Shown here piece by piece: positions 3,893-60,318 of a stretch of 64,000 nucleotides of DNA; positions within the stretch are counted from its first letter, which is position 1; each line of letters opens with the position of its first letter. A program made the position numbers and the translations under genes. The DNA is from Candidatus Babeliales bacterium (GTDB lineage: Bacteria; Babelota; Babeliae; Babelales; JANWKD01), in NCBI GenBank assembly GCA_963722075.1, contig CAVRJM010000001.1, forward strand, positions 256,001 to 320,000. The letters are read 5' to 3'. The notes below the pieces were generated by a model. That model searched no databases and was not told the origin of the DNA. It saw only the letters and a list, made by a program, of their open reading frames with translations.

Positions 3893-4098
3893 ATAATACA
3901 TTCATTCGCTATCCAAAAAAGAATAAAGAAAATAGCTGATTTTTCCCATAATCCCCCAGTATAACCCAGGGTATTATTAACAACTTGAAATTAATTTATT
4001 TTCTGATATCCTATAGATATAGGTTTAAACCTATTTATCCAATAATTTAAAGGTAAAAAGCCTTAAAAGAAGAATTTAAGGAATCTATGGAGGTATCA

Positions 4099-9734: not shown

Positions 9735-10339
9735 TGTTGTGATGATTCGCTGTTCATAATAAAGGAAAGACTCATTCTATCCTGATTTTGATGCTCAGGA
9801 TAGTTTTGTTTATATAGTTGATAATATGTATAAAGTGATTGCTTGATATCAGGAGTTAATGGTGGTTGAGATGGCGTTTTTATTATAGTTAATATGGTAT
9901 TAAAAAGTGAACGAACGGCAAATGGATCCTGAGCATCTAAATGCAGGCTGATTAATTTTAGATAGGTATTAATCTGTAAATTATAAAAATGCGTTTGGTA
10001 TATTTCTCTATAGTGTGCTATTTCATGTGGAGTGGAAAATTCATACGGTATTACTTTGAAAGTAAGTAATCGGTTCAAGTGTTCAATTTCTTCTAATAAC
10101 AAATCCTTAATTCCAGTGAGTTTATTATTGGTTGGATGCAAATTATAACTATGACAGATTTGTAGATATTCCCTTTCAAAATCTCCTATTTTTTGCATAT
10201 GAGGCTTAGCCTGCTTTTTATAATACACTCTTCCGCTATTAGAACCAAATTTATCTTCTTGGTTATCCTCTTGATCAGGATTCATAGCTTGCATCGATAT
10301 CATTGCCGTAATGATTAAAAAAAAAGTAGCATATTTCAT
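9731..10339 (-). CDS. Secreted hypothetical protein
   Basis: GGGG RBS; signal peptide MQA|MNPD. Confidence 0.7.
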   Translation of the reverse strand: MKYATFFLIITAMISMQAMNPDQEDNQEDKFGSNSGRVYYKKQAKPHMQKIGDFEREYLQICHSYNLHPTNNKLTGIKDLLLEEIEHLNRLLTFKVIPYEFSTPHEIAHYREIYQTHFYNLQINTYLKLISLHLDAQDPFAVRSLFNTILTIIKTPSQPPLTPDIKQSLYTYYQLYKQNYPEHQNQDRMSLSFIMNSESSQQ

Positions 10340-35843: not shown

Positions 35844-36992
35844 ACAGGACTTACGCAAGAGCATAAGAGTTCTCTTCAAAAGCATAAAATAAACTAGATG
35901 GTGTAGGGGGTTTTGCGACCCGAAAGGATCTGACAGCTTGTTCAGTATTGTCGAAATTATCTTTTACCCGCCTTATGTCGGCTAAAGCATAAGCCCATAA
36001 CACGAAAAGTAAATGCGCACGCTGCATGTTAAAAGAACGCATTTGGCATTCGCTGAATCCAAGAAGTTGTTTGGCAGTTCTATTGAAGCATTCAATTTGC
36101 CAACGAATCTTATATGTAGAAATTAGCTTCTCTTTGCCGAGCTGATGGCTACTGATAAGATACATAATTTTTTCCTTATCAATTTTTAACACATAGAAAT
36201 AACAGGAAAGACCAAAAATAGTGCCGTATCCACAAGCAAATCTGTTATTTTTTTTCAAACGTAAAATTTTTTGCAATTGTCCTGTTTTATTGTTAATAGT
36301 AACAACGCGATTTCTGGGAATTTTCATCAGAAATTTTATTGACCTGTTAAAAAGCTTTGGCAGAAGGTATTCAGTCGCATAATGGGCATCTGCAATTAAC
36401 CAATTAAACCGAATTGATCCTAGAACACGCTCTATAATAATGTAAGCAATTTCACTTTTTGTCTTGTAATTGGTTTCTCCAAATACTTTGCTTATCATAA
36501 TCTCCGCATCAATCGGTATTCTTACTCTGGTATCAGTGATCATGCCAATTACAGACCGTAATCCCAAAGCTGATCTTTTCTCACTACTATCATAAACAAT
36601 TTCTAATCCTTCAATATCGTTAGCATATTGCTTATTTACGGGAGTATCATCGATTATCAAATATCTTTCGCAATTGCTAAGACTTTCTAGAGCAACATTT
36701 TGTAATGAGCTTGTTATTTCTGCTGCATTCTGGGCTGCTTTTTCAACTTCCCTATTGAGCACATCATGCATTATTCCCAGTGTTTCAGAAATATTTGTGC
36801 AAACTTTTCGTGCCGTTGTTTTTAATAAACCCATTACATATTTTGGTGTGCTTGATTCTTCATTTGTATTTGTTATTCTCATTTCGGGTGTCCTTCTTTT
36901 TTGCTTTTGTTGTTTAATTCACAAAATTGAAGCACCCTTTTTTATTTATTTCAAGTCCCAATCAGAACTTTCGACCAATGCGTAAGTCCTGT
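35844..36992 (-). mobile_element. Insertion sequence, IS701-like DDE element, 1149 bp
   Basis: Perfect 14-bp inverted repeats ACAGGACTTACGCA/TGCGTAAGTCCTGT; TATC direct repeat (35840-43 and 36993-96). Can also be read as a 13-bp IR with a TTATCA duplication. Confidence 0.92.
35851..36882 (-). CDS. DDE transposase
   Basis: LIIDDT, IADAHY, YKIRWQIECFNRTAKQLLG..ECQMRS (YREK-type motif); stop codon lies inside the IR. Confidence 0.9.
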   Translation of the reverse strand: MRITNTNEESSTPKYVMGLLKTTARKVCTNISETLGIMHDVLNREVEKAAQNAAEITSSLQNVALESLSNCERYLIIDDTPVNKQYANDIEGLEIVYDSSEKRSALGLRSVIGMITDTRVRIPIDAEIMISKVFGETNYKTKSEIAYIIIERVLGSIRFNWLIADAHYATEYLLPKLFNRSIKFLMKIPRNRVVTINNKTGQLQKILRLKKNNRFACGYGTIFGLSCYFYVLKIDKEKIMYLISSHQLGKEKLISTYKIRWQIECFNRTAKQLLGFSECQMRSFNMQRAHLLFVLWAYALADIRRVKDNFDNTEQAVRSFRVAKPPTPSSLFYAFEENSYALA

Positions 36993-38616
36993 TATCAATA
37001 AAAAGCATCTTCAGGCGTTATCTCAAATTATAATTCTGTATAATACTGATGAACGATGGGTCGAATTATGTGATCGTATCAAAATTCATATTAATGAATT
37101 AGTAGCAGAAAATGCTACGCGTGGGTATGCCCTAAAAAGAAAATCTGATACTTCTTTCTATAAAAAAGCAGAGCCCAAAAAACAAAAAGTGGATGGTGAA
37201 GAAATACCATCGTTAATACAATTGTGTACGTCATGTATTACAAAAAATGTACAATCAGGTTCTTATGATTCGGAGAGTGTTGTTAGGATTTTTGATTTTG
37301 CCCTGGAACCGAGATTACCAACGATAGAAAATTCATGTTTAGGTGTATTATATCAAGAAGCACAAGAACAAAATAAAAAAAGTTTTTTAGCAACAGCTCA
37401 GTGGTTAGAAAATCTTAATTTATCATCAACACAAATGGAAGCATTAAGAAATCATATTGTAAATAATTCAAAAGCACTTCGTGCATTATTGCTAAAACTA
37501 GAAGCTGCTACAAAATTAATTACCCAATTTGAATTATTGGGCCCTAGCTATGAATCTGCTTTATCTTCTGATGGAAATGTTCTTGCATTACAAGAGCGGG
37601 GAAATAATATTATTAAATTATTTAACTGCAAAACAGGTAAATTACTTCAGGAAGTGCAAGGGCTTTCAGGTCCTGTTTTTGTAATGGCTCTTTCATGTGA
37701 TGGAAAAAAATTAATTACTAACTCACTGGTAGCTGGTTCTGCTACGTTTCGTTTATGGGATTGCGATACTGCTACTTGCATTAAAGAATATACTTTTACG
37801 AATAATGATTTACTTTCTGCATTGGCAGTAAATGCTAATAAAAAGATTATGGCGTTAGGTTTTGAAAATGGAACGATACAGCTTTATAACATGGAAACTA
37901 ATGGTATTAAAAATTTAATAAGCAAGGGGACAATTAATTTGCTACAATTTTCCGATGATGGTAAAAGGTTAATATCCAGCGCAACTAATGAAACACGATT
38001 GTGGGATCTTGAAACTGATAAAAGCATTATGCTTTATACAAAAAGAATTGATGGTTGCTTATTAAGTGAAAATTTTGTTGCATATAATAGAGGAAATTCA
38101 GCTAAGCTATTTAATCTTCAAACGAATCAATATTACAATTTACAAAGTCGTGATATTTTAAATTATTTTAAATGTATCAAATTACTTGCATTTTCTCCTG
38201 GTGAAACAATACTTGCAACAACTGGTAATAATTCCGGGGCTATTTGTTTATGGGACTCTCAAACTGGTCAACATATCAAAACAATTCAATGTCCTACTAA
38301 TAGATCTATTAGTTCACTCGTTTTTAATAGCGACGGAGAATCATTCATTTGTCTTCCAAAATGTTTCCTTCTACAAGTTGGTGGAGCTTTCGTTGACTTT
38401 AAAGATGTCATATATATTTATAATTTTATTGATAAACAAATATTAGCTGATTTGGATATAGAAACACTATTATGGCTTGGGTATCTTTTAAGCGCTGATC
38501 CAATAACGGTTCAAATGGAAATTTTCCTTTATAATCGAGATTTGTATGAAAAATTACCTGACGAGATTAAAAGATATTTAGATAGTATTAAGTAATATAA
38601 AATTTGAGTCAGAGAA

Positions 38617-39441
38617 TTATATACTTTGAGTCATAGTAATTGCTGGTAAAGCGGCGTCTATTACTTTATTAAAAAGTGCATTTTCAAATTTAATAGTATT
38701 TAAATAATGTACGCATTCAGTAAATTGACCTTCTTTTGCCTTTTCTATGCCAGAATTGAGTAATTGATCCCATTCGCTTTTTTTTAGGCATACGTTCGTA
38801 GTAAATATAATAATTATTGGATCAATGGTATGATCTTTTATGCAATCCTGCATTAATGTGTATAGAAGCATGATACTCTGATTATTAAAAAGAAATTCAT
38901 CTTGAGCTAAATAGCGAGCTATTTTTAAGCTTCTATTGCAAGCAGCTATATAAAATGCCATCGCTTTAAATTCATTAGAGGATAATGATTGAGAGAGATT
39001 AGTTGGCGGAAAATATTCTTTAGTAAAATTAAGGTTGCCGGAAATAATTGCAGTTTCAATTGAGTATTTACTGCCGTTTCGTATCACATGCTGCTTTCTT
39101 GCTTCTTGCAATGCGTGCTCGCGTTGCTCTTTTTTTTCTTCATTAGGTAATAATAATTTAAGACATTTTGGTGGGCCACCATGCTTAGTGACCCATTCCA
39201 ATACATTATTTTGAGTAGCTTTTAATTGTTTATTTTCAGCTTCTAAAGAATTGATACGATCCTTTAGTACTTTGATAACGCCTAATAAGTTATTAATGGC
39301 TGGCACAGCAGCAGTGGAGTCGTCTTTATTAATAAAGAACCAATCACGCTCACTATCTGATTCATCTTCATGTTCCATGCCTGCAGAATAAGACATATGA
39401 AATACAATAAAAAAAAGTACTATTTTTTTTACGCTATTCAT
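38617..39441 (-). CDS. Secreted protein with coiled coil and degenerate ankyrin-like repeats
   Basis: SAG|MEHE; LKDRINSLEAENKQLK; AIISGNL, AFYIAACNRSLKIARYL, AKEGQFTECVHYL. Confidence 0.6.
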   Translation of the reverse strand: MNSVKKIVLFFIVFHMSYSAGMEHEDESDSERDWFFINKDDSTAAVPAINNLLGVIKVLKDRINSLEAENKQLKATQNNVLEWVTKHGGPPKCLKLLLPNEEKKEQREHALQEARKQHVIRNGSKYSIETAIISGNLNFTKEYFPPTNLSQSLSSNEFKAMAFYIAACNRSLKIARYLAQDEFLFNNQSIMLLYTLMQDCIKDHTIDPIIIIFTTNVCLKKSEWDQLLNSGIEKAKEGQFTECVHYLNTIKFENALFNKVIDAALPAITMTQSI

Positions 39442-42448: not shown

Positions 42449-42787
42449 ATGAAAAAATTAATAGTAACAATTGTTCTTATGCCGGCATTATTGAGTGCGA
42501 TGCAAAAACTGCAAACGCCGCCTGCGAGCCCTAAAAAGAATGTACCTTTAGTAACGATTGGCGAATATCATAATCTTGTTCGAGCTTTTAAAAATGCGCA
42601 GACAATAGATGATATTAATGATGGGATCAATAGACTGAATGCATTAAAAATGGACGCTACAAATCAGGGACGGCAAAAGATCGCATATGATTGTGGAAGA
42701 ATGATTGGAAGATTGCAAAGTAGATCAAACAATGATTTGTTTGTTGATCAATTAAAAATGATATCTCTTCAGGAAAAGAAAAAATAG
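42449..42787 (+). CDS. Small secreted hypothetical protein
   Basis: AAGGA RBS; LSA|MQKL. Confidence 0.7.
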   Translation: MKKLIVTIVLMPALLSAMQKLQTPPASPKKNVPLVTIGEYHNLVRAFKNAQTIDDINDGINRLNALKMDATNQGRQKIAYDCGRMIGRLQSRSNNDLFVDQLKMISLQEKKK

Positions 42788-42838: not shown

Positions 42839-43969
42839 TTACCCTAAAAATTTCTTAAAAAATCCCGCGATCGATCCATTGGTGGAATCACTAATTTGAG
42901 TGCCAATAAGTTCAGAATATTTCTTTAATGTATCTTTGGATTCAGCAGAAAGAGATGTTGGTATATGGCAAAGAATAGTGATAATTAAATCGCCTTTACC
43001 CTTGCTTCTAAGGCGAGCAAATCCTTTACCAGATATAGTAATTTTATGATTTACTGGCGTCCCCTTAGGAATCTTAATGGTTTCTTTGGTGCCATCGATG
43101 CTTTCAATTTCAACTTGGGAACCAAAAACTAACTCAGGATAGGTTACCATCACATTGCATTCTAAATTATCATTAAAGCGTTTAAATTTTTTATCTTCCT
43201 GTACATTGATCCGTACAAATAAGTCACCCGCCGGACCGCCAAATATCCCTGCGTCCCCTTTACCTGCCACACGCAAATCCGCTCCATCAAAAATACCGGC
43301 AGGAATGGTAACCTCAAAAGTATCTAGTTTTTGAATACGCGTTTGGCCCTTGCAATTTGTGCAGGGAGTAGGAATAGTAAATCCTTGGCCGCCACAGGTT
43401 GGACATGTTTGGCTAAAGCTAAAAAAGCCTTGGCGATAAAATTGTTGTCCAGTTCCTTGGCACGTGGTACAGGTTTCTACTGAAGTGCCTGGTTTTGCGC
43501 CTTTACCTGAGCAGACGTCACATACCACAAATCGATAATAACTAACTTCTTTTTTAGTTCCAATAAACGATTCTTTAAAACTGATAGTAATCTCTTTGTG
43601 AAGATCATGCCCGCGACGAGGCGTTGGGCCTGCCTTTTTACTACTTTTTTTTCTGCCGGCGCCGCCCCCAAATAAGGTTTCGAAGATATCGCCAAAATTC
43701 TCAAAGATATCCTCCATATTCATATCTTGGCCAAAGCCGCCCGTGCCGCCCATATCTGCAGTGCCGTATTGATCATACCGTTTACGCTTTTCGGGATCAG
43801 ATAACACGCTGTATGCTTCAGCAGCAGCCTTAAATTTTTCTTCAGCTTCTTTATTATCAGGATTTCTATCTGGATGGTATTTAAGCGCTAATTTTCGATA
43901 AGCGCTTTTTATTTCTTCAGGCGTTGCGCTTTTGGAAACGCCTAGTATTTCATAATAGTCTTGTTTCAT
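42839..43969 (-). CDS. dnaJ: Molecular chaperone DnaJ
   Basis: [17 protein letters not shown] region, four CxxCxGxG repeats, C-terminal domain. Confidence 0.98.
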
Positions 43970-48046: not shown

Positions 48047-48074
48047 TTGACAAATACGAAATTTTATTTATACT
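48047..48074 (+). promoter_or_regulatory. Sigma70-type promoter for the J-domain array
   Basis: TTGACA-16 bp-TATACT. Confidence 0.6.
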
Positions 48075-48119
48075 AATAAGTAACTATAAATGATCTCAGA
48101 TATTTTAGGGAATAATTAT

Positions 48120-50105
48120 ATGAAAATTAAACTATTATTAGGTATCGCCTTGATGACATTGTCATTGAAGGGGATGCAAGAATCGGATAGAAGTCTTTAT
48201 TTCTATTTTGGATCAAATCCATCAGTTAAAACTGACGATATAAAAACTATCTATGAAAGTATGGCTGCTGTTTATAATCCAGCTAATTATGAGCAAAGTC
48301 CCATAAAGGCGTCAATGCATAAAGAACAAGCAGCAGAATACTTCAGTAAAATGAGCGAAGCATATGAAATCTTATCAGATGTAACAGCTCGCGCCATGTA
48401 TGATGTTTTTGGATTGGAGCGTGCGAAAGCATTTTTAATCAGAAGAGAAGGTTTATTAGCTGGTATTAAAGAAGGAACTGAAGCGTTAAAAGGTCTTATT
48501 ACTCATTGTCATATCCCACAATACTATGAACAATTAAGGACATATCATGAAAAATTATGCACGTTTTGGATTACTGAAATGGCGGGTAGCGATATTGCAA
48601 CTGAGCTCAAACGGGCTGTAGTTAATGCAACATATATGGTTATTCAATTTTTTCATACCAATTATGCACAAAATAAAAATGGTGCTGAAATAATTAAATA
48701 TATCGATCTAGCATTAAATTATGCGAATGATCTTCCTTTAAATGATGCACAGGATCTTACTATTGCTGAAGAGCTTATTCAATTAAGAAATCAGTATCTC
48801 GCTATAGAGCGTGGATCTGGAAGCAATGTAAGTGCTGCGTCTTCTTCATTACCATCAGTAATGGTTGTAAAAAGACCTTTAATAGATAAAAAAAATAAAA
48901 ACAATGCAGTAAAGCGTCTCAAAGGGGCTGATAAATCGCCTCAAAGAAATCCACCAGCTTCTAAAGAAAATGAAGAATTTGAAAGACAAGTTGAGCAGGT
49001 AGGGGAATATCTAAAGGGAAAATCTTTTTTTACTACTACTGGCACTGATGGTCTTACGGTAGAAGAATTTTATACCGAAATTAGTAAGAGATTAGTATTT
49101 ATAAATGATTTACCAAAGAGTATTTCATTAGATAATAAAAAAAAATGTGAGGATTTATTTTTAGACCTTATTAAACGAGCGTTAGATCTGTTGCGATATC
49201 AGTATCGTGAATTTAGATCAGATGCCCATAATCAAGAGGATGCTTATAAATTAGGCATAACATTATGTGAATTTGGTGCAAGGATGGTAAATCATGCAGA
49301 CTTACAATGTTATACTGATTTTTTTAAGGTACGAGAAAAAAACAAAAACGAGCGGGAAGCGGCGATAGAGAAATTTGATAAAGACCTAAAAGCTAATCAA
49401 AAATCTAGCCGAGAATTAACTAGATATATGGGATTAGAGTATTTAAATGATTTATATATTGATGCTATTTCTCCACAGTACCAGAATAAAGCATTAAAAC
49501 ATTTTTATAAGGTCATTAATCGACTATTAAAAGAAAAAAAACCGAAATGGGTAGCCAAAAGGATTTTCCAAAGAGCTCTCATGTTCAAATGGACCGATTG
49601 TTCAAAACATATAGCTGAAAGCGGTATTTTTAGAAAATTTAATAAAATTATTGCTCTTGCTGATAAATTATTTGTTTCAGATTCTGATTTGTTGCGAGAT
49701 TTTTGCAAAGGAATGAAAGAAGAATTAGATGCAGATATACCAGAATCTATTCGGAATGTTAAACAACGTATTATTAATTCTTCCAAAAAAATAAAAAAAT
49801 GGATGACAGATCCTCGGGGTCGCGTCTGCATAAAAACTGCGCAAGGCATACACTCCATTAGTGCTTCTTTAAGTATTAATAGAGATGAAAATAATGAAGA
49901 ACAAGTTTCAATTTTTATAGAATTAATTATTACCTGCATTAATAAGTTAAATAATCTATACCAACAAAATGATGCAATAGAATTGATTGATCATCTATTA
50001 ACAAATTCCATCTTTGCATCTGGCATAGTTATTAGACAATCGATTATAGACACATTTATTGATTTGAAAAAACAAATTATGGAGGAAAAGAAAAATGAAA
50101 ATTAA
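48120..50105 (+). CDS. Secreted protein with degenerate J-domain (NPA for HPD) and putative NLS (paralogue 1 of 4)
   Basis: LKG|MQES; IK..Y....VYNPANY...AEYFSKMSEAYEILSD..R.MYD; KRPLIDKK..VKRLK. Confidence 0.75.
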   Translation: MKIKLLLGIALMTLSLKGMQESDRSLYFYFGSNPSVKTDDIKTIYESMAAVYNPANYEQSPIKASMHKEQAAEYFSKMSEAYEILSDVTARAMYDVFGLERAKAFLIRREGLLAGIKEGTEALKGLITHCHIPQYYEQLRTYHEKLCTFWITEMAGSDIATELKRAVVNATYMVIQFFHTNYAQNKNGAEIIKYIDLALNYANDLPLNDAQDLTIAEELIQLRNQYLAIERGSGSNVSAASSSLPSVMVVKRPLIDKKNKNNAVKRLKGADKSPQRNPPASKENEEFERQVEQVGEYLKGKSFFTTTGTDGLTVEEFYTEISKRLVFINDLPKSISLDNKKKCEDLFLDLIKRALDLLRYQYREFRSDAHNQEDAYKLGITLCEFGARMVNHADLQCYTDFFKVREKNKNEREAAIEKFDKDLKANQKSSRELTRYMGLEYLNDLYIDAISPQYQNKALKHFYKVINRLLKEKKPKWVAKRIFQRALMFKWTDCSKHIAESGIFRKFNKIIALADKLFVSDSDLLRDFCKGMKEELDADIPESIRNVKQRIINSSKKIKKWMTDPRGRVCIKTAQGIHSISASLSINRDENNEEQVSIFIELIITCINKLNNLYQQNDAIELIDHLLTNSIFASGIVIRQSIIDTFIDLKKQIMEEKKNEN

Positions 50106-52110
50106 ACTATTATTATCAATTCCGTTTATAGTTCTTTCTTTAAAGGGGATGCAACCATCGGATATAAGTCTTTATTTCTACTTTGGATCAAATCCAACAA
50201 TAAGCACTGACGATATAAAAACTATCTATGAAACTATGGCTCCTGTTTATAATCCGGCTAATTATGAGCAAAGTCCGGTAAAAGCTTTAATGCATAAAGA
50301 ACAAGCAGCAGAATACTTCAGTAAAATGAGCGAAGCATACGAAATTTTAAGAGATCAAACCCTGCGTCCAATGTACGATATTTTTGGGTTAAGTCGGGTG
50401 AGGGATTTTTTAAATAGAAAAAAAGATTTATTAGATGGTATAAAAAAAGGAACTGAAGCGTTAAATGGGTTTATTACTTATTGTCATATGCCACAATATC
50501 GTGAACAAATAAAACCGTATCATGAAAAATTATGCGTATATTGGATCCAACAATTAAATGATTGGTTAAATACTGATGTTGTACCCGAGCTACAGCGGGC
50601 CGTTGTCACTACAACATATAACGTTATTCAATTTCTTCACAGCAATAATCAGGTGCAAAATAGTGCTGAAATAATTAAATATATTGATCTAGCATTAAAT
50701 TATGTGAGAGAACTTCTTCCTTTAAATGATGCGCAAGATTCTATTATAGCCCAAGAGCTTACCCAATTAAGAAATCAGTATCAATCTACCCAAAGTTCGG
50801 GATCTGGTTCTGGGTGCCAAGAAAATATAGAAGCGGGAACAATTGGAACAAAAAGACCTTTTGTGTCAATAGATGACAAACATAGAGTAAATAATGCAGT
50901 AAAGCGACTAAGGGAGTCTTCTAACGAATTACGCAACGAAAGGGAAGCAGCTTATAGAAGAGCAAAGGAAATTGAAAAAGAAGTTGAGCAGATCCGAAAA
51001 TATGTGGAAGAAAAATCTTATTTTACTACAGATGGAACCAATGGGCTTACCGTAGAAGAATTTTACACTGAAATTACTAAGCGGTTAACCTTTATGAGAG
51101 ACTTTCCAGAAGGTATGAGTCAGTATATTAGATCAAAATGCGATAAGTTATTTTCAGGGCTTATTATTCAAGTCGTTGATTTGTTGAGAGATCAGTTTCA
51201 TTTATTTAAATCTGATGCACAAAATCAAGATAATGCTTATACATTGGGTGCGGCATTATACCATTTTGGTAAAGATCAGGTAACATATGATTCTTATGAA
51301 TTTCACGATTTAAGACGTGCTCTTTATTCATTTAATTATAACTACTCGCAACAAGCACGAAGATCGCTGGGAGAGCAAATAGAGAAACTTGATAAGGCTT
51401 TAAAAGATAAAGAAAAATCTGCCCTAGAATTAGCTAAGATACTTATAAATAGGTGTAAGTATGTTCATACCCTTGCTCCTCACTATCAAAATAAAGCATT
51501 AAAACAATTTTATAAGATTGCTAAACGAATGCTCGATGAAAATGAATCAGAGTATTCTGTATTGGTAGCAAAACAACTGATGTATATGGCAGCAGCTAAA
51601 TTGAAATGGGTTGATTGTTCACAAAATATAACGTTGAGTGGTATTTATAGGAAATTTAAAAAAATTAATTCTCTTTTTGAAAAATCATTTATTCCTGACA
51701 TGCGAGAAATGCGTGAATTTTGTAATGCAATGAAAGAGAAATTAAATACAGATGATGCAGAATCTATAACTACGGTTAAACAAACTATTATTAGCTCTTC
51801 GGTTAAATTTAAAAAACTAACAAATATTTTTAGTAGTAATCTAAAAATTCAACGAGGTTTACATACCCTTCGCGGTTATATGGGGCCATCTGAAAGGGCT
51901 CAATCGCAAACACCTTTTACTACTTTTATCGCATTGCTTTCTAATTGTGTTCAAAAGTTAATTAAGTCTGATCAACAAAATGACGCTTTGGAATTGATTG
52001 AGAACATATTAAAATACCCAGTATTACAATACTCAATTAGCCAACCGACTAAAGAACAATTCCTTGATTTAAAAAAACAAATTATGGGGGAAAAGAAAAA
52101 TGAAAATTAA
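50095..52110 (+). CDS. Secreted protein with degenerate J-domain and putative NLS (paralogue 2 of 4)
   Basis: Overlaps the previous gene by 11 nt; similar throughout; QNKALKQFYK. Confidence 0.75.
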   Translation: MKIKLLLSIPFIVLSLKGMQPSDISLYFYFGSNPTISTDDIKTIYETMAPVYNPANYEQSPVKALMHKEQAAEYFSKMSEAYEILRDQTLRPMYDIFGLSRVRDFLNRKKDLLDGIKKGTEALNGFITYCHMPQYREQIKPYHEKLCVYWIQQLNDWLNTDVVPELQRAVVTTTYNVIQFLHSNNQVQNSAEIIKYIDLALNYVRELLPLNDAQDSIIAQELTQLRNQYQSTQSSGSGSGCQENIEAGTIGTKRPFVSIDDKHRVNNAVKRLRESSNELRNEREAAYRRAKEIEKEVEQIRKYVEEKSYFTTDGTNGLTVEEFYTEITKRLTFMRDFPEGMSQYIRSKCDKLFSGLIIQVVDLLRDQFHLFKSDAQNQDNAYTLGAALYHFGKDQVTYDSYEFHDLRRALYSFNYNYSQQARRSLGEQIEKLDKALKDKEKSALELAKILINRCKYVHTLAPHYQNKALKQFYKIAKRMLDENESEYSVLVAKQLMYMAAAKLKWVDCSQNITLSGIYRKFKKINSLFEKSFIPDMREMREFCNAMKEKLNTDDAESITTVKQTIISSSVKFKKLTNIFSSNLKIQRGLHTLRGYMGPSERAQSQTPFTTFIALLSNCVQKLIKSDQQNDALELIENILKYPVLQYSISQPTKEQFLDLKKQIMGEKKNEN

Positions 52111-54160
52111 ACTATTATTAGTAATTCCACTTATAATTCTTTCTTTAAAGGGGATGCAAGAATCTGATATAAGTCTATATTCCTATTTAAATGTTCAAAA
52201 TAATGCAACTAGAGAAGAAATAAAAAAAGCATATAAAGATTGTTCTCTTATTTATCATCCAGATAAATATGAACAAAGCTCTATACGCAATCGTATGTCA
52301 AAGCAAGAAGCTGAAGAGCATTTCAAAAAAATTAAAGAAGTATATGAAATTTTAAGTAATAATAAAACACGAAAGATGTATGATGATTTTGGTTTAAAAT
52401 ACGTCCGAAGTTATATTGCTCAGGAAGAAAAGAACCGGCGTGCTGCTGAAGAACCCATGGCCCAGCAACAATCTACCCAAACAGCGTTCACCGCAAAAAG
52501 GTCATCACAAACTCCTAAACAAGACGAAGCCAAGTCAAAATCGGAAGAAGATATAAAGAATGTTCTTGAAGATCTTGAGGCGGGAACTAAGATCATTAAT
52601 AACTTAATTACTGAATTTTATACCTATAGTTTCAGGTTATCAGAATTAGAAGGATATTATAACGAAAAAATTCAAGAATGTATTTCATTATTAAAAATGC
52701 CCAAATACTCAATTATTAGAGACGATATTAAGAAAACAATAATAGATGTATCACAATTATTCATTGGTGTATTACTATTAAAAATGAAAGAAGATCAAAA
52801 TTTGGCTCGTAATGTACTACTCCATGCAGAAGAAATTATGCAGTCTTTATACTTAGGAGTAAATGATTACAGGTTTTTTGCAGATGCTGTAACGCGCGCC
52901 CGAGAAAAATTGGCACCCAGATCGCAACCATATACTCAACAACATACTGCTTTTCAAACAAAACGACCGTCACCACAGGGTCCTAAACAAGCTGATCCTA
53001 AGCGCGTAAAAACAACTGAACCTACTGTTGATTCGAAGTTTAAACAAAGAATCGAATTTATAATTGAAGAACATAAACGTTTTAGCGATTATTTAGCGCA
53101 AGCAAGTTTTTTGAAAGAAAACGTTTTAACCTATCAAGAATTTTCCAATATGGTACAGAAAAAAATTGATTTTATTAAACCATATATAACAGGAATTCCA
53201 GAAAATTTAATTTTAGGATATAAGTTGCGTAATAGCATGTTGAGACATATTTTCCAGGCCATTTTATTATTAAAAGAAAGATACACTGAATTTAAAGAAG
53301 TTGATTGGATCATGGCCTGTGGATGGGGTAAAAATTTATGTAGTTCAGCGTTTTTTATTTATTCAATTTCAGATGATGAAGACAAAGCGGTTGTTAAGGA
53401 GCTTTCTTTGTTAAATTCTTATTTTGATAAAGAGATATTGCATTCAAAAATTAGGAATATAGATTATCACCTTCGTTCAAAAAGCTCGAATATAATTGAA
53501 GATGCGCGATTTGTACTTCACGATTATGAAAACAAAATAATTTCAGCAGATCCTATAATGCAAGATAAAGCCGCAAAGCATTTTTATAAATTTGCCAAGA
53601 AGTTATTAAAGCAATCAGAACGAGCTCTAGCAGTTGAGTTGTTAAATAGGGCACTATACTTGAGATGGTCAAATATAGATGGTATTTACCAAACAATTGA
53701 GAAAATAAAAAATCTACTTACAAAGCTAAATTATTATTCGATTATTGTAACGAATTTTTGTCAAAGTAATAGAAAAAAATTGGAAGAAAATTCGCCAGAT
53801 GCAGCGCTTGCTGTTCAACAAAATATTATTAATAATAATGATCGATTGAAAAATTCGCTTTCATGCTGTGTTATTCATCGATTTCAGAATTTCATATATA
53901 GTACTTTTACAACCACAAACCCTGATTTACTGAACCTTTATTATGATTGTATTCAGTTGTTAATTAATTCTCATTTTTTAAATGAAGCTTTAGAGCTCAT
54001 TAATATCGTAATTTGTCAATACGATCTGGATAAAGAAACACAGGATCGCTTTAAAGAACAATTTGATTTAATTAATCAAATGCAAGAATTAGATAAACAA
54101 CTTGAAAGTCAGCCACCAATGGATTTCAATGATATTAAAGATTTTTTAAGTAAAGAATAA
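52100..54160 (+). CDS. Secreted J-domain protein with intact HPD and putative NLS (paralogue 3 of 4)
   Basis: LYSYLNV..NATREEIKKAYK...YHPDK...F..IKEVYEILS..R.MYD; KRPSP..PKRVK; QDKAAKHFYK. Confidence 0.85.
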   Translation: MKIKLLLVIPLIILSLKGMQESDISLYSYLNVQNNATREEIKKAYKDCSLIYHPDKYEQSSIRNRMSKQEAEEHFKKIKEVYEILSNNKTRKMYDDFGLKYVRSYIAQEEKNRRAAEEPMAQQQSTQTAFTAKRSSQTPKQDEAKSKSEEDIKNVLEDLEAGTKIINNLITEFYTYSFRLSELEGYYNEKIQECISLLKMPKYSIIRDDIKKTIIDVSQLFIGVLLLKMKEDQNLARNVLLHAEEIMQSLYLGVNDYRFFADAVTRAREKLAPRSQPYTQQHTAFQTKRPSPQGPKQADPKRVKTTEPTVDSKFKQRIEFIIEEHKRFSDYLAQASFLKENVLTYQEFSNMVQKKIDFIKPYITGIPENLILGYKLRNSMLRHIFQAILLLKERYTEFKEVDWIMACGWGKNLCSSAFFIYSISDDEDKAVVKELSLLNSYFDKEILHSKIRNIDYHLRSKSSNIIEDARFVLHDYENKIISADPIMQDKAAKHFYKFAKKLLKQSERALAVELLNRALYLRWSNIDGIYQTIEKIKNLLTKLNYYSIIVTNFCQSNRKKLEENSPDAALAVQQNIINNNDRLKNSLSCCVIHRFQNFIYSTFTTTNPDLLNLYYDCIQLLINSHFLNEALELINIVICQYDLDKETQDRFKEQFDLINQMQELDKQLESQPPMDFNDIKDFLSKE

Positions 54161-54189
54161 AAAGATTTTCTGATAATGGAGAAACATAG

Positions 54190-55845
54190 ATGCGAAGGTT
54201 ATTTATTCTCGTATTACTGCACATTACCTGTTATGCCATGGAAGATCCTTTTCATAATTATACATTAGAAGAGCAATCCAAAAAAGAATTAATTATTACC
54301 ATGGAAATGTATGCTAATAATTTAAAGCATTATATTTCCCTTTATTATGATAATCAGCTCAGTTGTACACAACTTGAAGATTATTATAAGTCGCTACACG
54401 AATGGTTATATAAACAAGGTGAGTTATGCAGAGGTACGCAAATTGCGCCTATTTGTGCAGAGGAAATAATCAAAAATGGTTTTAGCATCATTAAGCTATT
54501 TGCATCACATAAAGAAGCGGAAATGCTTGAAAAAGCGGTTTACTATATTGATTCTCTAGTAAAATATATACGCCAAGGAGATTTGCGATTACATGAATTG
54601 GATCAATTAAAAAACAAGCTCAGTCAAAAATTAAAGGCATCAGTTCAAAAAGGATTGTTAAAAAGAAAAGCTACGCAAAGTCCTTGCTTATCTGTTAAAA
54701 AAAATAAAGTTGATGATGTAAATTTTTTGAAGGAAAAAAATGCTGCATTAAAGAATTACTTAAAAAGAACCTCTTATAATTTGAATGAATTTTGTAGTAC
54801 GGTTACCATATCATTAGATACTATTATCGATTTATTTGATGATCTTCCTGAGCAAAAAGAAAAAGAAGAAAAGGGTTTAAGAGCACAAATACTCGCTAGT
54901 ATTTGTAGAGCAATTTCTTTATTTGAATATCAATTAGAAAAATTTACTCATTATAATAGTAAAACTGCATTTCAATGCATTATTTATATATGTCAACGTG
55001 GATTACCATTTAACTCGATATGGACGCAACTGCAAGAAACGCAAGAAATTTATAAATATAAATTACAATGTATTGAAATAAAAGAACAACAAAGAAAAAA
55101 AGTAGAAGATCTAATAGATGCAATGGGCCAACAATTTCCAATCAGCAAAACGAGCCCGGATCTTAAGAATATTGCAGATGTTTTAATGGCGGAGTGCGGA
55201 AATAATGATGATCTTTCCTTGGATTATCAACAAAAAGCTCTAAAGCATTTTTATAAAGTAACAAAAAAGTTATTCCAACAAAATGATATTGAACGATTTA
55301 CAACGCTGATTAATTGTGTTCTTTCTCAGGCATGGATGGAGGATCTTCATATCATTGATCGTTTTACAAAGATTTGTGATTTAAAAAATAAAAATGACGA
55401 AGCATATCAATGGGTACTAAAATTCAATGCAATTATAAAAGAACATTTTAAGAATGCGCAGGATATTGAATCTTTAAAAAATGCTTTAAACACATTACTT
55501 AATTATCAATCAGATGCTTTTCAGGTAATCAGTCGAATTTCTACCATGATTATCGTTCCTGAAGTGCTTAATGGAAGTGTTACCATAGGCATTAAAGAGG
55601 ATGATCAGCAAAAAAATGATGCAAAATCAATGATTCTTAATCTCTATTATGATGGGGTACAAAAATTAATGGAAGCAGGCTTGTTTGAAGAGGCCGGAAT
55701 TCTTATTAATAGTATAGCAGCTCAGGGTGATGAACTAAAAATAAATGAATTAAGAAACCAACTTGGTGATTGTATTATGGCATCATATGAAGCTACGCTT
55801 TATTTAAATTTACCTGATGATGATGCCGATACTATTATTTTGTAA
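54190..55845 (+). CDS. Secreted paralogue 4 of 4, lacking the J-domain
   Basis: GGAG RBS; CYA|MEDP; KRKATQSPCLSVKKNK; QQKALKHFYK; LNLYYD..Q.L. Confidence 0.7.
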   Translation: MRRLFILVLLHITCYAMEDPFHNYTLEEQSKKELIITMEMYANNLKHYISLYYDNQLSCTQLEDYYKSLHEWLYKQGELCRGTQIAPICAEEIIKNGFSIIKLFASHKEAEMLEKAVYYIDSLVKYIRQGDLRLHELDQLKNKLSQKLKASVQKGLLKRKATQSPCLSVKKNKVDDVNFLKEKNAALKNYLKRTSYNLNEFCSTVTISLDTIIDLFDDLPEQKEKEEKGLRAQILASICRAISLFEYQLEKFTHYNSKTAFQCIIYICQRGLPFNSIWTQLQETQEIYKYKLQCIEIKEQQRKKVEDLIDAMGQQFPISKTSPDLKNIADVLMAECGNNDDLSLDYQQKALKHFYKVTKKLFQQNDIERFTTLINCVLSQAWMEDLHIIDRFTKICDLKNKNDEAYQWVLKFNAIIKEHFKNAQDIESLKNALNTLLNYQSDAFQVISRISTMIIVPEVLNGSVTIGIKEDDQQKNDAKSMILNLYYDGVQKLMEAGLFEEAGILINSIAAQGDELKINELRNQLGDCIMASYEATLYLNLPDDDADTIIL

Positions 55846-56524: not shown

Positions 56525-57397
56525 ATGAAAAAGACCCTCACAATAGCTATTTTTATAATTTATTTACAGTTTATCGCATATGGTAATGCCTGGCAATTGC
56601 GGCTTATTCCCCTTACCAAAGATACTATGACAGGGGAGTGGAGTGCTTTATTATGTCATGATCTTCGTTATGGCTGTATGGAATTAAGTAAGCCAATGGT
56701 ATTGGAGGCTGTAAACAGTTCCGAAATTAGTACTTTTTTTTCTGTTGCTACCAATGGATCATATGCCTATAGCGCGCAAGATTTAGAAAAAAAATGCTGC
56801 TCTTTTCGTTTATCTAATGGAGATCTTATTTGCTATATTCCAGTACCGTATATTTCAGCAGGATTAATTAATAAAAAGGCACATGAATCATCTGATCTAA
56901 CTGTTACTAAAAATAATTTTGTCTGGTTGCCTATACATGAGATATTACAGCGGCGCACTATAGTAAAATCGGCTCATGGTCGATCGATAGCATATATGTT
57001 GGAATTGGATATAAAAAAATATTTTAAAGAACATTGGTATACTACCGTATTACCAAAAATGGCTACCGCTCCTATGGCGCCTTTAAAAGATCAACCTATG
57101 AATCTAGCTGCTAAAAATGTTCAAAGACGTTATGAAGTGAGTAAAAAAATGAGTAGCACCAACAGTGTGCCGCACAAAAAACCGGTAGCTTCACCGGTTA
57201 AGGAACCAAAGCAACCACAGCAAAAATCTCAAGTAGCTATCAAAAAAAATATTCCAACTCAAAAAAAGAATCAGTTAGTTATGATCAAAGGGAAAGTCCC
57301 TAATGAAAAACGCGAATTAGTTATGATTAAAGGAGAAATTCCTCCAAATGAAAAAAAGAATCAAATAATTATGATTAAGGGGAACGTTTCTACATAA
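56525..57397 (+). CDS. Secreted degenerate Nudix-fold protein with C-terminal peptide repeats
   Basis: GNA|WQLRLIP..GEW.ALL.HD; IPVPYI; FVWLP; tail repeats (L/I)(V/I)MIKG. Confidence 0.55.
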   Translation: MKKTLTIAIFIIYLQFIAYGNAWQLRLIPLTKDTMTGEWSALLCHDLRYGCMELSKPMVLEAVNSSEISTFFSVATNGSYAYSAQDLEKKCCSFRLSNGDLICYIPVPYISAGLINKKAHESSDLTVTKNNFVWLPIHEILQRRTIVKSAHGRSIAYMLELDIKKYFKEHWYTTVLPKMATAPMAPLKDQPMNLAAKNVQRRYEVSKKMSSTNSVPHKKPVASPVKEPKQPQQKSQVAIKKNIPTQKKNQLVMIKGKVPNEKRELVMIKGEIPPNEKKNQIIMIKGNVST

Positions 57398-57430: not shown

Positions 57431-58687
57431 GTGAAAAAAATGACATATCAGTTATTGCTGTTTGTTATGGTGTGGTTTCCTCTTACTTATAGTTGGCAAG
57501 GACATGTAATACCTATTGCTTTTGATAATGGTCTATGGAAAATTTTATTAGTGCATGATAGAAATGTGCTTCTTTGGAGTGATTTCAGAAAGGATGGTAC
57601 TGGCTCTCGTAAAAAAGGAAATGTAATTGCGGCTCAAGCATTAGCAGTGCAAACCAATAATATGTATCATGTTAACCCGGCAGATTTAAAATATTTTCCG
57701 ATAATAGAAGAAAAGCGTGGACGGGTTTATTTTGTTAAAGTTCCATTTATCAGAGGTAAAGAACTTTATGAAAATGCCCGCACAGCGGCTAAAGATGATT
57801 TTGCATGGGTGGCTATAGCAGATATTGTTGCTGGTAAGTTACTACAAACACCGCGCGGTAAGCCAATACAAGTAGGTAAAACAACTAAAGAAATTTTACA
57901 ATTTATCAAAAATTATTATGAAGCTATATTAGCAGCATTAACGGAGCCAATTGAAGCAATGCCTTCTGCTAAAAATTGCTGGCTTAATATTCCCGGTGCT
58001 ATTTATTTTTATGAAAGTGGTAAACCGTATTTTGAGTTTACTAATTTTGCGCGCTATCCAGTAGTACTTGATGGTGAGCAGTGGCCTACCACTGAACATT
58101 ATTATCAAGCTCAAAAATTTATTCATCATCCGGATTTGCAAAACAAAATAAGAAACTTAAAAACGCCACGAGAAGCATTAGATTTTGCACGTAGGCATAA
58201 AAATGAAATTGACCCCGATTGGCATGATCGCAGTATTTCTGTAATGCTAACCGCAGTACGTGCTAAATTTAATCAACATGCTACGTTACAGAAACTATTA
58301 GTAGATACGGGGAACGTTACTATAGTAGAAAATGCCGGCCAACATGATAATTTTTATGGTGCCGGTGCTGATGGCAAAGGAAGAAATGTATTGGGTCAGA
58401 TATTGATGCGCGTGCGTGCTGAATTACAAGGTGTTGTTGATCCAGGAGATGATTTTATATGTTACCCAAATGCAGCAGATTATTTTGCTGGTAGTAATGG
58501 TGAGGTATGTACTGCGGGTATTGTAACGAGGCCGCAAACAGAGCAGCGGATGCAGCCTCAAGAAAGTGAACTTGAAAAAAAATTAACAACTCTTAAATCG
58601 GCACTCAATAATCTGCTAGCTTTATTAACAGGATCTAGTTCATCAAGTCGTGGGCATTATTCATTATGGCGAGTTACTAGAAGTTAA
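57431..58687 (+). CDS. Secreted pseudo-Nudix plus NADAR (YbiA-like) fusion protein
   Basis: GTG start; WSDF Nudix-like N-domain; NADAR motifs FTNF, WPTTEHYYQAQKF, AKFNQH, LVDTG, IVE...D.FYG.G.DG.GRN.LG.ILMRVR. Confidence 0.85.
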   Translation: MKKMTYQLLLFVMVWFPLTYSWQGHVIPIAFDNGLWKILLVHDRNVLLWSDFRKDGTGSRKKGNVIAAQALAVQTNNMYHVNPADLKYFPIIEEKRGRVYFVKVPFIRGKELYENARTAAKDDFAWVAIADIVAGKLLQTPRGKPIQVGKTTKEILQFIKNYYEAILAALTEPIEAMPSAKNCWLNIPGAIYFYESGKPYFEFTNFARYPVVLDGEQWPTTEHYYQAQKFIHHPDLQNKIRNLKTPREALDFARRHKNEIDPDWHDRSISVMLTAVRAKFNQHATLQKLLVDTGNVTIVENAGQHDNFYGAGADGKGRNVLGQILMRVRAELQGVVDPGDDFICYPNAADYFAGSNGEVCTAGIVTRPQTEQRMQPQESELEKKLTTLKSALNNLLALLTGSSSSSRGHYSLWRVTRS

Positions 58688-58698
58688 AAGGATATCGT

Positions 58699-59556
58699 AT
58701 GAATAGTAAATTATTAATAATATGTTCATTGCTCATTAATTGTTCAATGCACGCGGCAATGATACGCGTTTTACCGGTGACGCTGTTTCAAGGGGAATGG
58801 TATGGACTATTTGCTCATGAATCAAAAGAGCCTGATTTAAATAAAGGATGGACCGACTTTAAGGGATTAAAAGATGATACTCGCAACAATGAAGAACAGG
58901 CCATTGATATTGTTAATAAGCAAACGAATTATACTTTGGCCATAACGCAAGAATATTTTCAGAAATGGGTTGTTGGCGTGGAGCTAGAAAAAAGTTTGTT
59001 ATATGTGATTAAATTCCAGCTGCCAAAAGATTATACATTAGACAAAATACAAGAAACATTAATTCTACTTACACCTAAACAATTCCAATATGATCTATAT
59101 GCATTTATCCCTATTAACAAAATTATTAACAATAAAAAAATATCCCTCTCACTACGAAGAAAAGAAGATATTATTGCTGGAAGAGAAATTGCCTTAATGA
59201 TTAATAATGCACAAATTAATGACGATATCAAAAATATTTTGCAACTTAATTGGTCCAAAATACGTCCAGAGATTATAAAATTAGATTGGAAAAATAAAGG
59301 AATTAGTAGTGAACTCCCCATTGAGGCTAAAAAACCAACCAGCACAAAACCAATGGTGAAAAGCCCAATAGAACGAGAATTGATGAGACTTAAATCAAGC
59401 TTAAATGATTTATATAATGCATTACCCACGCTATCCTATCCTGAGTATGAACCAGAAATATATAAGAAAAAAGAAATGAAAGAACTGGAAGAGCCTGAAG
59501 AAGAAGAAAGCAGAGGTTGGCTCAGTTTGTTCCAGTGGGCTGGGCAATTTCAATAA
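58699..59556 (+). CDS. Secreted degenerate Nudix-fold protein
   Basis: IRVLPV...GEWYGLFAHE..GWTDF..VNKQT; acidic tail. Confidence 0.6.
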   Translation: MNSKLLIICSLLINCSMHAAMIRVLPVTLFQGEWYGLFAHESKEPDLNKGWTDFKGLKDDTRNNEEQAIDIVNKQTNYTLAITQEYFQKWVVGVELEKSLLYVIKFQLPKDYTLDKIQETLILLTPKQFQYDLYAFIPINKIINNKKISLSLRRKEDIIAGREIALMINNAQINDDIKNILQLNWSKIRPEIIKLDWKNKGISSELPIEAKKPTSTKPMVKSPIERELMRLKSSLNDLYNALPTLSYPEYEPEIYKKKEMKELEEPEEEESRGWLSLFQWAGQFQ

Positions 59557-59568
59557 AAAAGGATACTA

Positions 59569-60318
59569 ATGAAGAAGCAAATACTGGTATTTTTAACATT
59601 AATTTTTTTTAGCCATCATATGAATGCATGGCAGGTACGCTTATTGCCGGTTACGTATTATGAAGGCGTATGGTATGGATTATTTGGCCATGAAAAGGGA
59701 AGTGCTGATTGGCAAACAGGGTGGACGGATTTTTACGCGCACGGTTTGTTGTGGCAGGATGCGGTAAAGCTTATTATTGGCGAATATAATAAACAAACGC
59801 TTGATTTAACCAATATGACCAAAGAGTATTTAGAGAAATGGGGAGTACCCATCAAATTGAAGTCAGATGTAATGTATTTTGTATATTTTCAATTGGCAAC
59901 ATTACCTGAAAATTTTCAAAATAATCTAACGCAAGCGCTTTATGAAGGTGGAAATATAATTAACGCAGCTGCCCTTATACCAATTGATAATATTATTAAT
60001 AATGAACCTATCAAGATTGAAGATCTTGTATTGAAGGGGGTAGGCCGAGAAATAAGTATGATTACTCTTGATAATATTCAAGTTAATGATGATATAAAAG
60101 AAATTTTACAAAATAATTGGCAACAAGCGCATAAAGAACTTCGTAAAAAACTTTATGAAATAGCTGTCGGAGAACCCGGTTTGGCTATTCCTGAAGAACC
60201 TAGACGCGCTCATGTAGTAAGAAGAAAATTAGGTACTGAACAGAAAACATTGCCATTTACGGCGCTATTAGATTCTTTGCGTACGAAATTACAATCTTTG
60301 CGGCAAGCATTACGTTAA
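59569..60318 (+). CDS. Secreted degenerate Nudix-fold protein
   Basis: WQVRLLPV..GVWYGLFGHE..GWTDF..YNKQT; close paralogue of 58699-59556. Confidence 0.6.
   Translation: MKKQILVFLTLIFFSHHMNAWQVRLLPVTYYEGVWYGLFGHEKGSADWQTGWTDFYAHGLLWQDAVKLIIGEYNKQTLDLTNMTKEYLEKWGVPIKLKSDVMYFVYFQLATLPENFQNNLTQALYEGGNIINAAALIPIDNIINNEPIKIEDLVLKGVGREISMITLDNIQVNDDIKEILQNNWQQAHKELRKKLYEIAVGEPGLAIPEEPRRAHVVRRKLGTEQKTLPFTALLDSLRTKLQSLRQALR

Follow-up and report, generated by a model that had tools for sequence, protein, structure and literature searches.

The 64,000-nucleotide (nt) stretch of DNA analysed here (the window) comes from the 1.47-Mb genome of a bacterium of the Dependentiae/Babeliales, an obligate protist parasite, and its region 48120-55845 holds four tandem, paralogous open reading frames (ORFs) on the + strand, which we call c1 to c4. 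Their products join signal-like N-termini to helical domains and, in three of the four, to a J-domain or J-like domain. The ArgRS gene 2 kb upstream of this array has named homologues, 56-60% identical, in Candidatus Dependentiae/Babeliales, and cultured members of the phylum are described as intracellular parasites of amoebae and flagellates. The genes and the elements that organize them are as follows.

48047-48074, + strand: best sigma-70-like promoter match, TTGACA-16-TATACT, 11/12, about 45 nt 5' of the c1 start
48120-50105, + strand: c1 (copy 1), 661 amino acids (aa) counted from MKIK
50095-50105, + strand: c1/c2 overlap (c1 stop region and c2 start), 11 nt, ATGAAAATTAA; GGAGG 9 nt 5' of the ATG
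50095-52110, + strand: c2 (copy 2), 671 aa
52100-52110, + strand: c2/c3 overlap (c2 stop region and c3 start), 11 nt; GGGGG 9 nt 5' of the ATG
52100-54160, + strand: c3 (copy 3), 686 aa
54190-55845, + strand: c4 (copy 4), 551 aa

As the original prediction had it, the c1/c2 and c2/c3 junctions are 11-nt overlaps with one identical sequence (..GAAAAGAAAAATGAAAATTAA), and the putative ribosome-binding sites, GGAGG and GGGGG, both lie within the upstream gene. The c3-c4 gap is 29 nt, with GGAG preceding the c4 start, and a further open ATG lies upstream of c1 at 48090. One operon with translational coupling is a reasonable reading of this layout. The match at 48047-48074 is a candidate for its single promoter on account of its top score and its position; promoter-like sites in the region number 37, compared with 46.9 in shuffles, so that their total is not above the shuffled level. 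A search of sequencing runs listed four DNA runs containing part of the stretch (best share 0.48) and no RNA run.

Full-length alignment bore out the prediction of four paralogues with a shared C-terminal helical region, the invariant columns including Q.KA.K.FYK, W and A..LI. Relative to c1, identity is 52% for c2, 29% for c3 and 23% for c4. Searched by tblastn against the whole 1.47-Mb genome, the non-J regions matched these four genes only. The order of parts in c1 is signal, J-like domain, N-terminal helical domain, disordered basic linker and C-terminal helical-repeat domain, and the four copies compare as follows.

c1, + strand: signal-like peptide 48120-48173; J-like domain 48204-48404; NPA 48276-48284; basic motif KRP..KRLK 48870-48923
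c2, + strand: signal-like peptide 50095-50148; J-like domain 50173-50379; NPA 50251-50259; basic motif KRP..KRLR 50851-50913; C-terminal helical-repeat domain
c3, + strand: signal-like peptide 52100-52153; J-domain 52175-52384; HPD 52256-52264; insert 52487-52579
c3 (continued), + strand: basic motif KRP..KRVK 52961-53011; Q.KA.KHFYK 53561-53590; acidic-hydrophobic tail 54083-54157
c4, + strand: signal-like peptide 54190-54237 (..CYA/MED, the slash marking the predicted cleavage site here and below); no J-domain; helical domains kept; basic motif KRK..KKNK 54661-54708

The insert in c3 is an additional segment of about 45 aa after the J-domain (residues 130-160), ..TAFTAKRSSQTPKQDEAKSK.., which echoes the later linker ..TAFQTKRPSPQGPKQADPKRVK.. 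and may have arisen when the linker theme was duplicated within the gene. As modeled by AlphaFold, c1 is all-helical (mean predicted local distance difference test score, pLDDT, 65.2), with one helical domain at about residues 103-232, a disordered segment at 234-280 (pLDDT 28-39) in which the basic motif lies, and a second helical region that extends as far as the C-terminus. For c3, a model of the last 267 residues built from nine sequences has 11 helices (pLDDT 78.7). A Pfam scan of c1-c4 at E<=0.01 found the DnaJ domain alone, with no tetratricopeptide repeat (TPR) and no helicase family. By VIA-align, the best structural match was 4i17 for the N-terminal helical domain (Z 10.8, root-mean-square deviation 2.5, 105 aligned) and 7ue2 for the C-terminal domain (Z 10.4, root-mean-square deviation 2.7, 114 aligned), both in a range common for helical repeats. 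The Foldseek search of the C-terminal domain, proposed together with the original prediction, was run and gave generic helical-repeat/TPR rows only, the best being the TPR of KLC1 (E 2.1e-3). Similarly, the best ESM Atlas features for c3 residues 320-686 (0.89) belong to unnamed or TPR clusters and lie below the lead threshold. These models are consistent with both helical domains being TPR-like scaffolds, and with nothing more specific. A search of PDB sequences with the non-J alignment (labelled A3) had GGA3 as its sole match, discarded as noise at E 0.11. A co-complex prediction between c3 20-290 and c2 20-235, made on the idea of a Pam16/Pam18-like pairing, scored 0.00 and, having no controls, is informative neither way.

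The state of the J-domain differs among the four copies. With J-domains called by Pfam DnaJ (PF00226, cut-off 27.8 bits), c1, c2 and c3 score 34.2, 33.4 and 66.4 bits, and c4 has no match. HPD occupies residues 53-55 of c3, and c1 and c2 have NPA at the same residues. In addition, c1 and c2 have lost the helix II lysines, and c3 keeps a basic helix II. Scores and residues therefore agree with the predicted pattern of HPD in copy 3, NPA in copies 1 and 2, and no J-domain in copy 4. If a functional J-domain is taken to be one with HPD between helices II and III, c3 has such a domain and c1 and c2 are J-like. Compared with the genome's own DnaJ, c1-c3 all carry 8 inserted residues beyond the HPD position. 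The G/F region, zinc finger (PF00684) and C-terminal domain (PF01556) of canonical DnaJ (type I/II Hsp40) are not found in the array, where only PF00226 matches (Pfam, E<=0.01). Canonical DnaJ is encoded by a separate gene (window 42839-43969), about 4 kb upstream.

The NPA domains are the best conserved part of c1 and c2. Comparing these two genes over the J-like block (alignment columns 51-100) yields pN 0.11 and pS 0.47, for a ratio of nonsynonymous to synonymous change (dN/dS) of about 0.15. By comparison, dN/dS is 0.52 for the whole gene, about 0.95 for the linker (columns 301-350) and about 1 in one mid-region window. The NPA domains are under strong purifying selection and are retooled, not decaying. 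The "active-to-dead gradient" of the original prediction thus survives as a description of the motif states (HPD, NPA, absent) and fails as a description of decay. HPD is essential for stimulating Hsp70. Given this requirement and the low dN/dS, the NPA domain is maintained by selection for a function other than Hsp70 stimulation. Gene conversion was considered as an explanation of why c1 and c2 are so similar across the J-like region and excluded, since pS there (0.47) is as high as elsewhere. In the first 50 codons pS is lower (0.29), possibly reflecting some 5' homogenization or a coupling constraint.

The N-termini were judged signal-like by our own crude hydrophobicity rules and inspection by eye, with no trained predictor. 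Those of c1-c3 consist of MKIK, 12 hydrophobic residues and ..LKG/MQ, and that of c4 consists of MRR, 13 hydrophobic residues and ..CYA/ME. All four proteins have an uncharged stretch of 11-14 residues, with K/R before it and a small residue followed by M-E or M-Q after it. With a basic n-region, a core within about 7-15 residues and small residues at -1/-3, these N-termini are predicted to be cleavable Sec-type signal peptides. At 11-14 residues, the uncharged run is not long enough to span a membrane, which argues for a signal rather than an anchor. The positive-inside rule, applied to basic residues before the core and acidic residues after it, would also place the J-domain outside. Since the J-domain (residues 26-95) directly follows the signal, it would be located outside the bacterial cytoplasm. 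The single DnaK of the genome (N-terminus MGKIIGIDLG) lacks a signal; the proposal that these J-proteins have no Hsp70 partner outside the bacterial cytoplasm is upheld to that extent.

The means of export are present. The genome encodes two secretins, two T2SSE ATPases and two type I signal peptidases. The signal peptidase genes lie at G000:C1:326730-327443 and 1297849-1298550 (G000 being this genome), with a T2SSE-type ATPase gene at G000:C1:329938-331083, about 2.5 kb from one of them. In Babela, type II secretion is described as the only secretion system detected (PMC4378268), and two gspD copies are reported in every TM6 genome studied (PMC4776705). In Chromulinavorax, 44% of coding sequences are reported to carry signal peptides, putative effectors included (PMC6561590).

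How far does this family extend? When the non-J profile was run with HMMER against 1.84 billion representatives, it had 8 matches: three of the window proteins, one chimeric-looking c2 fragment, and four distant metagenomic proteins, P0052-P0055. The fragment, P0051 (307 aa), begins with 48 unrelated residues that are Ala/Arg-rich and GC-rich-looking and from there on matches the C-terminal part of c2 exactly; it probably stems from a chimeric contig in a public assembly. A fifth metagenomic relative, P0002, came from a word-indexed search with full-length c3. That search was dominated by canonical DnaJ and did not return the paralogues, and with A3 it returned c3 only, so it is uninformative on family size. 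The distant proteins repeat the plan of the array, namely a signal ending in a small residue before ME, a J-domain, a helical domain, a basic linker and a Q..ALKH[FY]YK domain. Their J-domains have HPD in P0052, P0053 and P0002 and are degenerate in P0054 and in the second J of P0052. Across 261 genomes of the phylum, profile A3 matched only a 422-aa protein of a sister species (G001; E 1.1e-5) and, marginally, one in G167 (E 0.0066). The G001 protein is J-less like c4, with a signal ending ..CVQA/ME and the basic motif KRPVESPISSSNLTHPSKKQR. A second profile, A2, had no match beyond G000 in 40 relatives, and a profile search of genome contigs with A2 gave 122 pattern matches, 0 of which were confirmed. 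The C-terminal domain family is therefore rare and patchy: besides the four members in this genome, it has a single J-less member in the sister species and five from metagenomes.

By contrast, the combination of signal and J-domain is wider. Among 61 genomes of the order, PF00226 matches (which are not gene counts; the 8 in this genome fall in 7 proteins) number 8, 6, 13 and 8 in the window's own family and <=5 in 54/57 others. Signal-like N-termini are found on 6/7 J-proteins of this genome. Its other signal-bearing J-proteins are at G000:C1:1064193-1065518 (-), 444420-446564 (+) and 1340330-1341535 (-); among these three are one with ..NWA/MEQEE, an HPD J-domain and two degenerate J-like repeats, one with a mid-protein J-like domain that has TDPD, and one with a C-terminal HPD J-domain. 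We also hand-picked 8 loci with long or clustered non-canonical PF00226 matches from G001 and three sister genomes (G003, G004, G070). In this non-random sample, all 17 J-ORFs have a signal-like start, and 11/17 have a small residue followed by M[EQN]. In G003, four genes in tandem read HPD, HPD, no-HPD, no-HPD, and in G004 an array of three reads HPS, none, none. An hmmsearch of the ORFs of these eight loci with A3 gave no match, and by BLAST their proteins share the signal and J head alone with c1-c3. This head-only sharing, together with the mixed arrays, points to a recurring design in which an exported J or J-like head is placed on interchangeable helical bodies, with active and HPD-less forms side by side.

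As predicted, c3 ends in an acidic-hydrophobic tail, ..MDFNDIKDFL (54083-54157; QELDKQLESQPPMDFNDIKDFLSKE), and c4 has an acidic C-terminus, ..PDDDADTIIL. Such tails recur at the C-termini of P0052, P0055 and relatives in G003/G004 (L048 2208-4766 and 4804-7740; L051 2389-4731 and 1776-2318), the recurring sequences including, besides that of c3, ..DEIDTQLLDIDL, ..DTQDILGDVIDLSL and ..FDEDELLKELFEQHN. Judged by eye, some match the spacing of leucine-rich nuclear export signals.

Also recurring in the family is the basic motif of the linker, which reads KRPLIDKKNKNNAVKRLK in c1, KRPFVSIDDKHRVNNAVKRLR in c2, KRPSPQGPKQADPKRVK in c3 and KRKATQSPCLSVKKNK in c4. The prediction of a bipartite basic motif in all four copies was confirmed, and the motif lies in the predicted disordered linker. 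A classical bipartite nuclear localization signal (NLS) has KR, a spacer of 10-12 residues and K(K/R)x(K/R) in an exposed segment. The spacers of c1 (12), c3 (11) and c4 (10) fall within this range, as does that of P0053; c2, with 15 residues, does not strictly conform. The form KRP.{5,16}K[KR].[KR] occurs in 3/1259 ORFs of the genome, exactly c1-c3, and the strict form KR-x10-12-K[KR]x[KR] in 13/1259. A basic cluster is present in 9/9 family members that contain the linker (P0055 is without that region), although the linker is the least conserved (dN/dS ~0.95) and least structured (pLDDT 28-39) part of the proteins. A 780-aa member of the G004 J-array also carries a basic motif, KRLIEEAMKKHAPPVKKRK. 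Judged by its pattern and position, the conserved KR(P)-x10-15-K(K/R)x(K/R) motif would most likely act as a bipartite NLS, the simplest reading in a protein whose bearer parasitizes eukaryotes.

The analysis establishes how the genes are arranged, which domains they encode, that the motifs are conserved, that purifying selection acts and that the genome has export machinery; signal cleavage, secretion, a host Hsp70 as partner and nuclear import are inferred. The reading we favor, to which we give somewhat less than an even chance, is that the array encodes Sec/type II-exported, host-directed J-proteins that are probably imported into the nucleus. The four genes would then be one operon for a lineage-specific family of a Dependentiae parasite of protists. 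Each protein would cross the inner membrane by means of its Sec signal, be cleaved after the small residue to leave a mature Met-Glu or Met-Gln end, leave the bacterium most likely by type II secretion or inside vesicles, and reach the host cell, where the linker motif would carry it into the nucleus. In the host, c3, with its intact HPD, would switch on host Hsp70 at a client or site picked by the two TPR-like helical domains. Having kept the J-fold and lost HPD and the basic helix II face, c1 and c2 could not stimulate Hsp70 and may serve as non-stimulating adaptors, or as competitors or antagonists, on related targets. c4 would be the J-less form.

Several observations weigh against this proposal. 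The nearest sequence relatives of the J-domain are ordinary bacterial DnaJ proteins, and no sequence feature indicates a preference for eukaryotic Hsp70. The helical domains match generic TPR/helical-repeat folds only, so no target can be named. A signal-like N-terminus discriminates poorly on its own, since the crude rule assigns one to 555/1259 ORFs (44%). A type II substrate would end up outside the bacterium, and its reaching the host cytosol would depend on a cytoplasmic as opposed to a vacuolar lifestyle. Finally, the spacers of c2 and of the G001 protein (both 15 residues) fall outside the classical 10-12, and a relaxed bipartite pattern occurs in 100/1255 ORFs of this lysine-rich proteome, in 43/299 (14%) of those of 400-900 aa, and in 10-28% of composition-preserving shuffles of each paralogue. 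Because the relaxed pattern is this common, a single occurrence of the motif is weak evidence; its weight comes from recurrence at the same linker position.

The commonness of the relaxed pattern and the 15-residue spacers also lend themselves to a different account, in which the proteins are exported to the host and act outside the nucleus. The basic linker would then be a lipid-, nucleic acid- or organelle-binding patch or a lysine-rich spacer, and the Hsp70 clients would be cytosolic or bound to organelles, mitochondria being one example. Chromulinavorax is reported to remodel host mitochondria (PMC6561590), in keeping with such a role. This account fits less well with a motif held at the same linker position in all nine members despite the near-neutral dN/dS of the linker, with a KRP-type form unique to c1-c3 among 1259 ORFs, and with the classical spacing in c1, c3, c4 and P0053. 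We regard it as unlikely, though still worth serious consideration.

Whether the proteins leave the bacterial envelope at all is a separate matter, on which the residues at the predicted cleavage site bear. A junction of the form [AGSC]/M[EQDN] follows the hydrophobic core in 141/555 signal-like ORFs, compared with 35/704 non-signal ORFs at comparable positions. The frequency of Met is 0.09-0.10 at offsets 5-6 after the core, compared with 0.022 overall (a 4-5-fold excess), and Glu comes next in 81/208. The junction is found in 0/10 housekeeping envelope proteins checked (BamA, a second Omp85 protein that is TamA-like, OmpA, two S41 proteases, two secretins, TonB, a HAD hydrolase and an FKBP). 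It is found on 11/39 located ankyrin-repeat ORFs, and several more of these have near-variants. Other carriers in the window are proteins with weak ankyrin-repeat matches or without a Pfam family.

Junction carriers in the window, examples: 1798-2331; 3386-3892; 4087-5454; 9731-10339 (-); 38617-39441 (-); 42449-42784

This contrast may reflect a host-directed export class that includes the J-array, and a second, specialized signal peptidase for the class is conceivable. The small residue/Met-Glu junction could also be of practical use as a marker when host-directed secretomes are predicted from these genomes. Against such a class stands the possibility that c1-c4 are envelope residents, in the periplasm or on the outer membrane surface, whose J-fold and helical repeats are structural or protein-binding and work without Hsp70. 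Many of the 555 signal-like ORFs must be envelope residents, the sequence reveals no signal for secretion across the outer membrane, and the helical-repeat matches, generic in score, include the envelope TPR proteins BamD and PilF. However, the ten housekeeping envelope proteins lack the junction that ankyrin-repeat proteins carry, each of the four array proteins has 8-14 cysteines, and c3 retains an intact HPD and a basic helix II, which have no known use without Hsp70, the sole Hsp70 here being signal-less. Residence in the envelope is thus improbable.

Mature Met-Glu, Met-Asp, Met-Asn and Met-Gln ends define the substrate class that NatB acetylates in eukaryotes. A broader, Plasmodium-like "exported chaperone-adaptor" program can be imagined, which we consider distinctly improbable as a whole. 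About one-tenth of the proteome, including the J-array and many ankyrin-repeat proteins, would belong to a dedicated Met-Glu/Asp/Asn/Gln export class whose mature, NatB-type ends resemble those of host cytosolic proteins. HPD and HPD-less J-proteins would be co-translated from genes that overlap, imported by means of their NLSs, and reprogram nuclear Hsp70 clients, with the HPD-less forms tuning or blocking the active one.

In all four genes and most relatives, a Met comes immediately after the predicted cleavage site, and this Met also bears on where translation starts. A Shine-Dalgarno (SD)-like site lies 4-18 nt 5' of the Met before the hydrophobic core in 99/141 genes with this junction. 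Such a site precedes the internal Met in 3/141, compared with 113/1117 random internal Met codons, and in c1-c3 the sole purine run ahead of the internal ATG is immediately adjacent to it, leaving no spacer. The signal is thus apparently translated, which makes an internal start or a DjlA-like arrangement unlikely. DjlA is a membrane-anchored bacterial J-protein (PMC6802931). It resembles the array proteins in having an N-terminal hydrophobic segment. In DjlA this segment is a true transmembrane anchor and the J-domain is C-terminal and cytoplasmic; in the array proteins the J-domain lies directly behind a short signal-type segment. The original prediction had named uncleaved, DjlA-like anchors with cytoplasmic J-domains as the outcome that would overturn it, and the length of the stretch and the SD data speak for a signal instead. 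Cytoplasmic or inner-membrane-anchored J-proteins that serve the bacterium's own DnaK are therefore very unlikely, even though the internal Met stands where a canonical DnaJ would begin and canonical dnaJ lies just 4 kb upstream, given the short hydrophobic stretch, the charge distribution around it, the placement of SD-like sites and purine runs, and the C-terminal J-domain of DjlA itself.

Two neighboring groups of genes deserve mention. Directly downstream of the array, a second tandem family of four signal-bearing paralogues occupies window 56525-57397, 57431-58687, 58699-59556 and 59569-60318 (+). Its members share an N-terminal module, W-Q-x-R-L-[IL]-P-[VL]-T..W..L..H[DE], and the second has a NADAR domain (Pfam 113.7 bits). 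In the sister genome G003, the W-Q-x-R-L module is fused to an HPD J-domain (L054 569-2542, 657 aa). Upstream, two WD40 beta-propeller proteins (33431-35392 and 37189-38595, +) lie on either side of a DDE transposase gene (35851-36882, -).

The phylum Dependentiae consists of widespread parasites of protists, almost none of them cultured, whose tools for host manipulation are barely known beyond counts of ankyrin-repeat proteins. In the main texts of the literature consulted, supplementary gene lists aside, we found no account of this family or of exported Dependentiae J-proteins beyond one sentence on Babela, which mentions three lineage-specific DnaJ-domain proteins without further analysis (PMC4378268). 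If the favored reading is correct, a bacterial lineage has independently reached the malaria-parasite strategy of exporting many J-proteins, often with a disabled HPD, to commandeer host Hsp70. c1-c4 would then be the first candidate nucleus-directed effectors of the phylum, and would offer a natural set of related HPD, non-HPD and J-less forms, a trio suited to probing what HPD-less J-like domains do.

Comparison with known systems places the array among several partial analogues. SV40 large T has an N-terminal HPD J-domain and a basic NLS and uses host Hsc70 in the nucleus; its NLS is monopartite, and it has an LxCxE Rb-binding motif and a helicase/origin-binding body. A search for LxCxE found none in c1-c3 and one LQCIE in c4, and Pfam found no helicase family. 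The description of these proteins as "T-antigen-like" therefore does not hold beyond a functional analogy. P58IPK/DNAJC3 also combines TPR-like repeats with a J-domain, and its structure 2y4t is a weak Foldseek row for the C-terminal domain (E 1.5e-2). Its domain order is the reverse of that in the array, whose proteins have no Pfam TPR match and only generic fold scores.

Predicted secreted DnaJ proteins of Meloidogyne arenaria combine a signal peptide, a J-domain and an NLS and are described as effector candidates (PMC6802931). They belong to a plant-parasitic nematode, have serine-rich repeats, are unrelated to the array outside the J-domain, and are likewise predictions only. The closest analogues would be HopI1 and the exported Hsp40s of Plasmodium. 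HopI1 of Pseudomonas syringae is a bacterial effector whose J-domain is required to engage host Hsp70 in the eukaryotic cell; it differs in its type III secretion, C-terminal J-domain and chloroplast target (PMC6802931). Unlike the array, it has no Sec signal, tandem paralogues or HPD-less partners. The exported Hsp40s of Plasmodium falciparum are described as a lineage-specific expansion of parasite J-proteins with an export signal, in which HPD members are thought to work with host Hsp70 and HPD-less "J-like" members (type IV, e.g., RESA) are functional (PMC6681276; PMC8544838). This expansion is the nearest functional analogue: the HPD is reported to be corrupted in most exported members, and cooperation with host Hsp70 is reported for some (PMC6681276). 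Plasmodium is a eukaryote that uses the PEXEL/PTEX route and targets the erythrocyte, and no sequence relation extends beyond the J-domain; the array, by comparison, is bacterial, with a Sec signal, unrelated C-terminal domains and a bipartite NLS-like motif.

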